Shown here: piece by piece, positions 1,022-3,435 of the stretch
How the letters are laid out: each line of letters starts with the position of its first letter
Numbering within the stretch: position 1 is the stretch's first letter
The notes under the pieces: model-generated
What the model saw: the letters and a program-made list of their open reading frames with translations, nothing else
The model's database searches: none
What the model was told of the DNA's origin: nothing
Assembly: GCA_963830365.1 (NCBI GenBank)
Contig: CAWHMU010000021.1
Coordinates: forward strand, 1-64,000
Length of the DNA: 64,000 nt
Reading direction: 5' to 3'
Source of the DNA: an uncultured Chlamydiae bacterium
GTDB lineage: Bacteria; Chlamydiota; Chlamydiia; Chlamydiales; Parachlamydiaceae
Program-made: the position numbers and the translations under genes

Positions 1022-1075
1022 TCATCCTATCCTTTGAGAACCTATAAAATTATTTTTGCCTAAACCTCAAAAGGC

Positions 1076-1107
1076 AAAAAAAAACCGCACCTCTGGCGAG
1101 GTGCGGT
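1076..1107 (-). terminator. Intrinsic terminator in the brnQ leader (attenuator terminator)
   Basis: Minus strand ACCGCACCTC-GCCA-GAGGTGCGGT followed by a run of 8 T, ~55 nt upstream of the brnQ start. Confidence 0.85.
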
Positions 1108-1139
1108 CTCAACATTAAATCCATATCCGGCCAAGCCGA

Positions 1140-1217
1140 TTACATAGATCCGCACCTCAAATGAGTGGGATGAATAATAATCAGGTTAATAATGGCGCGG
1201 CAGCTGTTAAAGCACAT
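1140..1217 (-). CDS. Putative Ile-rich leader peptide MCFNSCRAIINLIIIHPTHLRCGSM
   Basis: 25-codon ORF with 5 ATT and 1 CTG codons in 7 positions; AAGGA upstream; contains GAGGTGCGG complementary to the terminator 5' arm. Confidence 0.75.
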   Translation of the reverse strand: MCFNSCRAIINLIIIHPTHLRCGSM

Positions 1218-1326
1218 AATGCGTATATATCCTTATGAATGCTTCAATGTATCACACGCCAAAAATATTGGCAAGGCCAAAATCGTGTTCGCATCCCAAA
1301 TGAACGAAGCGGGCGTAAGTTAATTG

Positions 1327-2545
1327 CTAAAATTGGTAGGCAAGGTTTACAAAATAACCTTGATAACTCTTTTGGCCGAATTGATAGGAGAATCCGAGCG
1401 TCAGGCAGTCGTAATCAAGCCAAGGATTGATCTTGCTGGCAATCAGCGATACACCGATTTCATCGTAGTGGTTCATATAGAGTCCGCCGCGTTCAAAATC
1501 GGAATCCACCACATAGATGCTATAATTGATCGGCCGGCCGCACATCTCCATGCCTTGGCATGAAGTGATGGATAGCCCGTTCTTAAAAATATAGTTGTGC
1601 AGGTGATAGTTGAAATTAACGCCGCTTAACCACATATTGCCTGAGGCGTAATAGCCGGCAAAATTCGTCATCGATAGCACATAGTTGCACAGTTTGAAAT
1701 TCACCATGCTGTTTAATCCGGCAGACACAAAATCACCGGCCGTGCACAAATCAAACGATCCGCCAGCGCCAAACCTCACGATAGGCGTCACCGACCATAT
1801 CGACGTCACGGGAATTTGCAAGCCCACCCCCATGGAACTGAAAAGGGAATAGGCGCCGCCGTTGATGTTGAATGTCAGCGGCGCATCAAGAATTAAAGCC
1901 CCAACTCTGACAGGAAGAGTAGGAGTAGCGCAGCGGCAGCGTGATGGTGGTCGTATCAAATTCTCCTGAAAAAGCCCTGCCGACATATGTGCCGGCCTGG
2001 AACTGATGCACTATCGGCTGGGCACCCCCACAGTCACAGCCGCTCAAGGGCGATAGGCGCCCCAGTAAATAATCGGACTGGGCCATCTGCGCCAACAGGC
2101 TATTGGGATTACCGGCAATGGGGTCGATGGGTGAGTATTTGGCATAAGCTTTTAACAACTCATGTTTGCTGCCCCCGTCTCTTACGAACTCTTTGAAAAG
2201 CGCAAAGCTGGCATCCCTGGTCGCGCCCGCAAAAACCTCTACCTTCCCCGTCTGCGGGATGGCCACCACCAAGGCGGTGGAATTGGCGGCATAGGATCCT
2301 ATCGCCATGATGCCACGCAAATTGATATCGAGGGAGATTGGCGACATGGGGGTATAGGTAGGAATAAGCAGTTCTAGCGAAGCTTCCTGCAAATCCCGCT
2401 TCAGATCGACCAGGTTGGGAGCGCTCACATGCGCGCTGTCGGCACCAACGGTTACCGTCGCCTGATAGGGCTGGTGGGCCGGCAGGCTAATCGCCTGGCC
2501 AAGCAGTATCCCCATCAGTGCGTAGTTGCGTATTTTTTGAAACAT
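1327..2545 (-). CDS. Putative exported/outer-membrane beta-barrel protein, frameshifted near 1900
   Basis: Signal-peptide-like MFQKIRNYALMGILLGQAISLPA; overlapping ORFs 1886..2656 and 1327..1986; alternating aromatic strands and C-terminal VNLAYQF. Confidence 0.55.
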
Positions 2546-2613
2546 GCCGTCTGCCTCTTTGAAAATGTTTGTTATATTGAAACCATAAAACCATTTAAAT
2601 GACAAAATATTTC

Positions 2614-3111
2614 GGGTCATCACACAAATGAGTGGTTGACAGAGATGACTACTCAAGAACTTATGACGTGAAAGGACTTTGAGGGTTGGGGTCAGGCTTG
2701 TGATTTGTGATTTGAAAGTCCTAAATACATTAGAAAGCCCGACTCATTTCAAATCGCAAATCGCAAGCCTGACCTCAATCCGTTCAGCCAAAGCCTACAT
2801 GATGAGTTTTTGAGGTTCATCCGGTTTTATAGGACCCACCTAGAAAAGGATGCGTAGAAATGGGGAAATGTAGGTAACACATCGGAGCAAAAATAACAGG
2901 ATATTAGGATGGACAGGATGAAAGATTTAAACTTTAGTTTGCCAACTTTGCGATTTATGTAGGTCTTGGGTGATCATCCTATTTTTCATATCCTGACCAT
3001 CGTAATATCCTTTTATTTTTGCTTACTCTTTTCTCTTTACAAGTCCTGCAAAACCGGAAGAACCGTTTTTAAGATGTTAGCTCTGTCAACCACTCGTTTG
3101 TGTGATGACCC
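2614..3111. mobile_element. 498-bp non-autonomous MITE with a nested inner MITE (copy 1)
   Basis: 31-bp TIR GGGTCATCACACAAATGAGTGGTTGACAGAG; 8-bp flanking duplication AATATTTC (2606-2613, 3112-3119); near-identical copy at 44818-45315. Confidence 0.85.
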
Positions 3112-3139
3112 AATATTTCCCACGCATATCTCTTTTCGG

Positions 3140-3335
3140 TGGCAGAGCCCAAACTAAAATTACGTGCCCGAGCCCATGCCCGAATTCCAAAATACTTAGA
3201 TCTTAAAGGAAAATGGCTCAAGTATTCATTGGTTCTGACTTTGCCACGCTAAGAATGGATGGTCTAATGATTTTGGAATTCGGGCACGGGCTTGGGCACG
3301 GGCTCGGGCACGTAATTTTAGTTTGGACTCTGCCA
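3140..3335. repeat. Palindromic element with GTGCCCGAGCCC-type arms (family C)
   Basis: TGGCAGAGCCCAAACTAAAATTACGTGCCCG ... CGGGCACGTAATTTTAGTTTGGACTCTGCCA; related copy at 7923-8060. Confidence 0.75.
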
Positions 3336-3435
3336 TGTTAAGAATGGATGCTCTAATTTCTCCTTTGACAAATTAAAGGCAAGCTCCCTAATGTAAGCTT
3401 TTAGCCAGAGATATAAATTTTAGGGGATTGACTGC

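Follow-up and report, generated by a model that had tools for sequence, protein, structure and literature searches.

The leader region of brnQ

The window, the whole 64,000-nt stretch of DNA that we analysed, comes from an uncultured chlamydial genome and opens with brnQ, a gene of the LIVCS family on the minus strand (1–1018; start at 1018 or 1015) that runs off the end of the contig. The product was identified as BrnQ by its match to PF05525 and by alignment with orthologues. All elements of the leader described here lie upstream of this gene on the same strand, and the window contains a single unit of them.

A sigma-70-type promoter-like site, TTGCCA-17-TACATT with an extended TG, occupies 1274–1246 and predicts a transcription start near 1240. 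A weak Shine–Dalgarno-like AAGGA (1234–1230) is found 12 nt 5′ of the ATG of a short upstream open reading frame (uORF) of 25 codons and a stop (1217–1140). The uORF has counterparts in 47 of 47 homologous units (see below) and reads MCFNSCRAIINLIIIHPTHLRCGSM*. Its codons 9–15 (1193–1173) are ATT ATT AAC CTG ATT ATT ATT, that is, five Ile codons, one Leu and one Asn, and both this sequence and the enrichment of Ile in the homologues mark them as the control codons.

Segment 1 (1171–1163) is a weak protector that pairs with the antiterminator box; in the window this helix involves about 1171–1163 and 1158–1148, as seen in the minimum-free-energy fold and in an alignment of the homologues (A2). 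Segment 2 is the box itself, GAGGTGCGG (1158–1150), which extends from the third base of codon 20 to the second base of codon 23 and pairs with 1106–1098, an assignment based on sequence, folding and covariation. The same GAGGTGCGG recurs at 1093–1085 as the 3′ arm of an intrinsic terminator whose 5′ arm, CCGCACCTC, lies at 1106–1098, and box and 3′ arm therefore compete for CCGCACCTC. Two inner helices of the antiterminator rod (1149–1119), formed by 1149–1142 with 1126–1119 and by the hairpin 1139–1127, span the uORF stop and are supported by folding and compensatory changes. The terminator (segments 3 and 4, 1107–1084) was located by a terminator search and is supported by covariation. Its stem, 1107–1098/1093–1084 with a GCCA loop, can be extended to 1110/1081 and was scored as terminator-like with 13 pairs, seven of them G–C. 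It is followed by a U8 tract (1083–1076), where the terminated leader RNA is predicted to end. A further hairpin, 1080–1072/1061–1053, appears in the fold of 1240–1018 and is possible only after read-through. For brnQ itself, the best promoter candidate is a single 9/12 site that overlaps the U tract.

An earlier reading, made from the sequence only, had described an Ile-sensing attenuator at this place, and its elements hold up: the position given for the 25-codon uORF is exact, translation confirms the Ile run at codons 9–15, and we find both the 9-nt box complementary to the terminator 5′ arm and the GC-rich terminator with U8 before brnQ. A transcription start downstream of the uORF had been named as evidence that would speak against an attenuator; the promoter-like site lies upstream and not downstream of the uORF. 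The long antiterminator rod with two inner helices, the weak protector and five frameshifts in brnQ had not been noted.

Folding of the leader and the proposed switch

The leader (1240–1074) has a folding z of −3.1, which was equalled by none of 200 shuffles. A transcript that ends before the 3′ arm folds into one rod of about −29 kcal/mol, in which box and 5′ arm pair over the two inner helices, and the same rod forms in 47 of 47 truncated transcripts of the homologous units. In equilibrium folding, the full-length leader always ends in the terminator fold, as would also be expected of a plain terminator, or of the 3′ end of a gene for a small RNA or peptide, that carries a chance or duplicated copy of one arm and no switch; the comparative evidence on this point is given below.

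We modelled the translating ribosome by an assumed footprint whose edge lies 12 nt beyond the first base of the A-site codon, again with equilibrium folding. In the model, nine of nine box pairs are kept with the A site at codons 9–16, 7.7 at codon 17 and 3.5 at codon 18, and none from codon 19 to the stop, which would place the switch point just after the last Ile codon. The sequence-only reading had proposed that a stall at the Ile codons frees the antiterminator segment and that a ribosome at the stop masks the box, to be checked by folding with and without the footprint. The footprint model reproduces both states, in that codons 9–16 keep the antiterminator and codon 19 onward abolishes it.

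We consider it very likely that the element is a classical ribosome-dependent transcription attenuator before brnQ that senses mainly Ile-tRNA, with its translation, start site and regulation deduced from sequence. Transcription would begin at about 1240, and the uORF would be translated. With charged Ile-tRNA scarce, the ribosome would pause on codons 9–16, covering the protector and leaving the box free, so that the antiterminator rod could form before the 3′ arm is made and transcription would read through into brnQ. With ample Ile-tRNA, the ribosome would reach the stop (1142–1140) and cover the box and the inner helix, which would free the 5′ arm for the terminator, and transcription would end near 1076. 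Ile would be the main signal, to which the single Leu codon may add little.

The arrangement is rare in the genome from which the window comes. Of 150 terminator-like sites in the 2.73-Mb assembly, three have a copy of the 3′ arm of at least 7 nt upstream inside a short ORF, and the window site alone among the three reaches 9 nt and five of seven identical residues. Searching with a covariance model gave one copy in this genome.

Conservation of the uORF across relatives

A search with an N-terminal fragment of BrnQ, in which the uORF was not used, gave matches in 68 of 73 family genomes, and the best 30 loci were taken. Eighteen of these 30 brnQ orthologue loci, the window included, carry terminator and uORF (22 units, four loci being doubled). 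The rest comprise one diverged version (L052), one locus without upstream DNA and ten loci without a terminator; these ten count against the attenuator reading. In an earlier search for relatives, whose 30 loci were mostly other brnQ paralogues, no such terminator was found.

Scanning GTDB species representatives for the pattern of box and terminator yielded 88 loci. Of these, 51 have no matching uORF and were rejected as chance or unrelated terminators, and two lie outside the group (L070 and L100). The uORF unit is present at 26 of 26 chlamydiae-labelled loci; nine loci with other labels were added, six for the brnQ that follows and three for the uORF, a selection that is partly circular. 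After removal of identical sequences, the final set comprises 47 units at 37 loci. Among the carriers is a cultured one, the record of Parachlamydiaceae bacterium HS-T3 (L125). The elements of the sequence-only reading (uORF, Ile run, box and terminator) recur in these relatives with compensatory changes, as it had suggested an alignment of leaders should reveal.

In all 47 units an ATG lies 14–30 codons upstream of the box, and the frame that it opens continues through the box to a stop at most nine codons beyond it. The box is read in the RCG frame in 43 units, in a shifted frame in four and in the third frame in none. In all four units with the shifted frame, the Ile/Val run keeps the frame of the ATG, and the triplets thus follow the ORF and not the RNA box. 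Since these four units read the box in another frame, the conserved RCGxM tail is the translated RNA box, and the leader peptide itself is therefore probably non-functional; it has no NCBIfam match. Judged from the sequences, the kept feature is an ORF with hydrophobic control codons that ends over the box.

These observations bear on the idea that the ORF is untranslated and that the AUU repeats bind a protein in a TRAP-like manner, or that the RNA binds a ligand, flipping antiterminator and terminator. Such a switch could account for the strong preference for ATT among the Ile codons (145 of 177, with 29 ATC and three ATA, compared with 29% ATT usage in the genome) and for the poor conservation of the ribosome-binding site, AGGA, GGAG or GAGG being found upstream of only six of 47 uORFs, which also counts against the attenuator reading. 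It leaves unexplained why ATG and stop are in frame with the repeats in all 47 units, the four box-shifted ones included, and why the first two codon positions are more constrained than the third. Moreover, a Thr/Ala version without AUU repeats (see below) keeps ORF, box and terminator, and we obtained no match to an Rfam riboswitch or T-box. We therefore judge a protein- or ligand-operated switch to be very improbable and retain the ribosome-operated attenuator.

By a hand count of consensus-like sites only, the best promoter candidate is a TTG-type −35 with a −10 ending 14–41 nt before the ATG for 23 of the 37 first or solo units and for one of ten second units of tandem loci. This suggests that tandem pairs probably share one promoter.

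A model built from alignment A2 matched in 24 of the 73 genomes of the family, although two matches are weak and not this element, and in 17 of 151 phylum genomes in five families, where some matches are plain terminators. No match was found in the 27 genomes of a family with 1.0–1.2-Mb genomes (inferred to be probably Chlamydiaceae), few candidates having been scored per genome. Held-out strong matches all had fitting ORFs, among them Ile-rich leaders before brnQ at L155, L161 and L183. Matches of at most 37 bits (L163–L166, L169, L230 and L235) were rejected because they are often plain terminators.

Covariation of the helices

In alignment A2, 89% of the 803 antiterminator cells are paired, and 35 changes are two-sided; none of 500 shuffles reaches this percentage or the score, and slid controls give 32–49%. 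The two-sided changes fall mostly in the inner hairpin and the outer pairs. The GUGCGG/CCGCAC core barely varies, and since it is nearly invariant and partly fixed by the search pattern, it can contribute little covariation. For the terminator, 96% of cells over the 47 units are paired; of its 27 two-sided changes, 25 fall at two base pairs.

The protector helix is paired in 84% of cells in A2, compared with 35–55% in slid controls. Its changes are one-sided only, and 223 of 500 shuffles do as well; its columns are biased towards transitions (58:50) relative to unpaired neighbours (28:106). Folding of the naked RNA keeps the antiterminator in 39 of 47 units, and the protector wins in only eight of 47, a result that counts against the attenuator reading. 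On these three grounds (one-sided changes, shuffles not beaten and few wins in naked folds), we grade the protector as weak. By contrast, the E. coli trp leader has a strong 1:2 helix. A weak protector predicts that loss of translation may lead to read-through rather than super-attenuation.

With these results, the plain terminator introduced above can be weighed. Weak model matches are indeed often of that kind, and equilibrium folding of the full-length leader does not distinguish the two. A terminator without a switch would not be expected to keep its spacing from box and stop, which is conserved (the stop lies 27–36 nt before the CCGCAC arm), nor to covary in the inner rod. The downstream genes of amino-acid supply match the codons of their leaders in identity, and brnQ has no better promoter candidate than the 9/12 site over the U tract. 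A plain terminator or RNA 3′ end is thus hardly credible, and the data favour the attenuator.

Identity of the control codons

We counted codons −13 to −5 before the box, a core that was picked after the profile had been seen. Ile accounts for 177 of the 423 core codons in the 47 units, compared with 42.5 ± 5.9 (maximum 64) in 1000 base shuffles, with 15 and three in the other two frames and with a genome background of 6.6%. Because related genomes are not independent, these counts are descriptive contrasts and not P values. Val (45 of 423) is modestly above shuffles, Met (23 of 423) exceeds the eight seen in shuffles, and Leu (23 of 423) is below them (55). Some leaders are rich in Met, Asn or Val, and four units have no or one Ile in the core; given these four and the Met enrichment, the signal is not purely Ile everywhere. 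Val-rich leaders before some brnQ copies contain 13 Val and two Ile in 30 codons.

The Val and Met excess and the variety of leaders could also mean that the same ribosome-coupled switch responds to the overall speed of translation, or to a mixed Ile/Val/Leu/Met pool. In the window, however, five of seven control codons are Ile, and Leu is depleted across the units. The codon set also shifts with the downstream gene, which a generic speed sensor would not need. We regard a speed or mixed-pool sensor as improbable and Ile-tRNA as the main signal of the attenuator in the window.

Cys/Arg and His were rejected as signals. The apparent Cys and Arg codons belong to RCG, which is the RNA box and is read in another frame in four units, and a stall there would favour termination. 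His occurs at −4 in 25 of the 47 chlamydial units as part of the protector helix. A tRNA-Ile(GAU) gene was not found in the window's assembly, which at 82% completeness is uninformative.

The state of brnQ in this genome

The brnQ of the window contains five single-base frameshifts, near 800, 425, 280, 188 and 105, and no in-frame stop. A frameshifted target gene counts against the attenuator reading and raises the possibility that the attenuator, whatever its mechanism, is a relic before a dead gene in this genome. Decay of this kind would fit the concentration of five frameshifts within 1 kb when a 1029-codon kinase gene 3 kb away is intact, and an intact brnQ paralogue sits on another contig of the same genome. 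On the other hand, the gene lacks nonsense codons and retains about 72% identity to four intact orthologues over some 330 codons, as intact orthologues do. The breaks are of single bases, often at or near short runs or repeats, and lie in the last kilobase of the contig. Contig ends in this assembly are poorer in long ORFs (cover of 0.59 within 3 kb of ends, compared with 0.73 inside contigs), and the neighbouring gene upstream (1327–2656, minus strand) is likewise broken into two ORFs, which overlap and have no match in Pfam. We think it probable that the brnQ frameshifts are assembly errors, which are likelier than decay, and a relic is correspondingly unlikely. A look through sequencing runs listed no RNA run and one DNA run, whose reads do not extend over the leader. 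The gene at 1327–2656 is probably one frameshifted gene, and the aromatic-rich, Phe-terminal end of its predicted product, typical of outer-membrane barrels, suggests a protein of that type.

Neither ilvC nor ilvD was found in the 82%-complete assembly, and its one acetolactate-synthase-like gene is below the cut-off; the absence of ilvC and ilvD fits, without proving, a reliance on uptake of branched-chain amino acids.

Further upstream in the window, 3100–3340 contains near-identical intergenic stretches (around 3102–3206 and 3213–3341) with GCCCGT-type hexamer repeats. Similar stretches occur upstream of genes in L014 and L208, and they look like a dispersed repeat.

Gene context, tandem units and Thr/Ala-rich leaders

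Among the 35 named loci kept from the pattern scan, 28 precede a brnQ orthologue. The same platform is found before the acetolactate synthase large subunit gene ilvB (L082 and L124, with a second Ile/Val/Leu unit, L226, at the L124 locus), as an Ile/Val-rich leader before an ilvH-like gene and ilvC (L156), as two Leu-richer units before leuC (L228 and L229) and before the threonine synthase gene thrC (L114/L221; the L114 record is labelled Nitrospirales). Its occurrence before ilvB, ilvC, leuC and thrC supports branched-chain sensing. At L098 (90–899, minus strand), a tandem leader lies before a gene whose product resembles mitochondrial carriers weakly (PF00153, E = 0.002, below the cut-off) and is a possible amino-acid carrier. 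The proteins behind the leaders of L061, L134 and L145 have no Pfam match (two are related and hydrophobic, one appears soluble) and are candidates for branched-chain-related functions.

Two complete units in series are present at 11 of 37 loci (L032, L034, L043, L049, L063, L068, L082, L095, L098, L124/L226 and L129), and also at L228/L229. Second units often end in IVVIHVK or IVAIHVK and contain Val.

A version with other codons was found upstream of a different BrnQ-family gene. At the six closest homologues of this gene (L191–L196, family f5; six of six), an RCG-ending box and a GCCCGC terminator lie some 170–20 nt upstream, and the leaders have 41 Thr or Ala codons of 66, compared with 11 in shuffles, and one Ile of 66; at one of the six loci there is no in-frame ATG within the stretch read. 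Twenty-four more distant homologues of the gene have no such terminator. In a quick tree of 70 BrnQ proteins, which left out L009, L018, L027, L030, L032 and the broken copy of the window, the six genes with Thr/Ala leaders form a clade (support 99). Far from it, a 23-row clade (support 99) holds the genes with the Ile-type terminator, of which 20 have the leader and three have lost it. From its codons, the Thr/Ala leader predicts Thr/Ala control of, and perhaps transport by, the paralogue encoded at L191–L196.

A similar box and terminator with different codons occurs in Thermotogota, with strong matches in five of 81 genomes. In the Thermotogota loci L224, L231, L232 and L236 and L227, L233 and L234, uORFs ending in RHHSRCG or similar precede polar amino-acid ABC genes, and NNQPEPKVWP precedes citrate synthase. 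These are candidate His/Arg and Gln/Glu/Pro attenuators.

A broader and more tentative reading, to which we give slightly less than an even chance, is that all these leaders are one portable attenuator cassette, with box and terminator core unchanged, that has been copied round chlamydial genomes, reprogrammed by rewriting of the control codons alone and stacked as a two-step gate, with a relative in Thermotogota. Its control codons would be Ile at most brnQ genes and Val at others, a mix of Ile, Val and Leu at ilvB and richer in Leu at leuC; at a distant LIVCS paralogue, which would then be a threonine/alanine importer, they would be Thr/Ala. Pairs behind one promoter would act as the two-step gate. 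The Thermotogota relative would respond to His/Arg where it precedes the polar amino-acid ABC system and to Gln/Glu/Pro at citrate synthase. If true, the cassette would be a read-out of the amino acids that are scarce for host-dependent chlamydiae and a substrate predictor for orphan transporters.

Comparison with known attenuators

The element has the following features of the trp/thr/ilv-type class: a uORF, a cluster of cognate codons, a 3:4 terminator with U tract and a 2:3 antiterminator that overlaps the uORF end. Conserved anatomy and folding across relatives support the ilv/thr/leu geometry that the sequence-only reading had recognized, and in the footprint model a stall would free segment 2 and a ribosome at the stop would cover it. 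The mechanism is known; the sequence family and the phylum are new.

In the E. coli leaders ilvL, ivbL and leuL, as described in PMC6123439, the antiterminator is favoured when translation is slow and the terminator when it is fast. Like ilvL of ilvGMEDA, ivbL of ilvBN and leuL of leuABCD, the chlamydial leaders have a short uORF rich in branched-chain codons, and the platform also heads ilvB, ilvC and leuC operons. They differ in that the main chlamydial target is an importer, and in their leaders of 20–30 codons, which are Ile-dominant, Leu-poor and often doubled. The Rfam family Leu_leader (RF00512) does not match the chlamydial family.

Neither the window nor any of 39 related loci has an Rfam match that reaches threshold. 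A Phe_leader match in the window (15 bits, E = 8.9) is below threshold. The closest family, Thr_leader (RF00506), scores 26–34 bits in relatives, on either strand and mostly from the terminator, compared with a gathering value of 55, and it does not match the window copy at E up to 10. The resemblance is in the 5′ arm of its consensus terminator, GCCCGCAC, which is like the chlamydial ACCGCAC/GCCCGC arm. Enterobacterial thrL senses Thr and Ile. One chlamydial-type unit likewise precedes thrC, and one clade has Thr/Ala codons, a likeness that does not imply common ancestry.

T-boxes provide another way to couple tRNA charging to brnQ. Within 900–1400 of the window, no T-box was matched by Rfam at E up to 10, and the survey in PMC2494555 lists none in ten Chlamydiae genomes. 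In Firmicutes, as described there, Ile-, Val- and Thr-T-boxes precede different LIVCS paralogues, and the authors caution that LIVCS carriers may be multi-specific. By analogy, tRNA charging would govern brnQ transcription in both groups; a T-box, unlike the chlamydial unit, binds tRNA directly and has no uORF. The Firmicutes case is thus both a precedent for the Thr/Ala prediction and a caution on it.

For Chlamydiae, the sole proposal of leader-peptide attenuation that we found is a putative trpL of Chlamydia trachomatis and C. felis (PMC3937554 and PMC7755916). In the latter, it is described as unvalidated, atypical and a poor attenuator; C. trachomatis is stated to lack TrpL-mediated attenuation, and trp attenuation is attributed to YtgR. 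The brnQ element differs from it in having the full classical anatomy, conserved across families. Two uORF switches in one leader, mgtM and mgtP, are described for Salmonella mgtCBR in PMC3641672. Eleven of 37 chlamydial loci resemble it in having two switches per leader; mgtM and mgtP are unrelated and sense ATP and proline, whereas the two chlamydial units of a pair are complete and homologous to each other, and each has an intrinsic terminator of its own. The sections of PMC8632094 at hand describe no such motif. The sequence-only reading knew of no branched-chain attenuator in Chlamydiota, and our literature search also found no description of one, or of the element itself; subscription-only surveys and supplements, which could hold such a prediction, were outside its scope.

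Chlamydiae are usually described as being without classical leader-peptide attenuation, and a conserved and covarying family suggests otherwise for environmental chlamydiae. They likely sense tRNA charging directly and tune uptake from the host accordingly, and the family would imply tight coupling of transcription and translation in the phylum. It also contributes a small ORF that lacks annotation and an RNA family that Rfam does not contain, and its control codons are testable substrate predictions for BrnQ paralogues (Ile, Val and Thr/Ala).

Other leaders near related genes

Several leaders of other types were seen near related genes. At L054, L055, L057, L058 and L059, a uORF ending in IIGS or LIGS precedes a brnQ orthologue, with a GGCAG/CUGCC hairpin over or next to the stop and no intrinsic terminator; at L054 and L055, a C-rich tract follows. 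Leaders of this type are possibly a Rho-dependent version. The uORFs before the brnQ orthologues of L053 and L060 end in an Ile run before the stop (SIISIIIII and SIIISLII) and have no terminator. At L019, which is the second brnQ paralogue of the window's own genome, and at L024 and L204, uORFs of 37–38 codons end in LLVRSAHI, IVVRKAHI or VIVRLARI, again with no terminator; L019 and L024 have a GUGCGC/GCGCAC hairpin. The idea of a C-rich Rho site for terminator-less leaders held at L054, L055, L019 and L024, weakly at L060 (11/8) and not at L053 (9/9).

The diverged leader of L052 is duplicated about 2.5 kb apart in the same genome (L052 and L184, G010), before brnQ and before an unrelated ORF. 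At L070 (860–998; labelled Opitutaceae), an EamA transporter gene is preceded by a uORF rich in Ile, Val and Leu and by a similar box and terminator. This leader scored only 20 bits with the model and was not counted as a member; it may be an independent attenuator. At L185 (1470–1620), a Phe/Tyr-rich uORF and a terminator lie upstream of a hisC-like aminotransferase gene (Phe_leader, 34 bits, below threshold), a candidate aromatic attenuator in a chlamydial genome.
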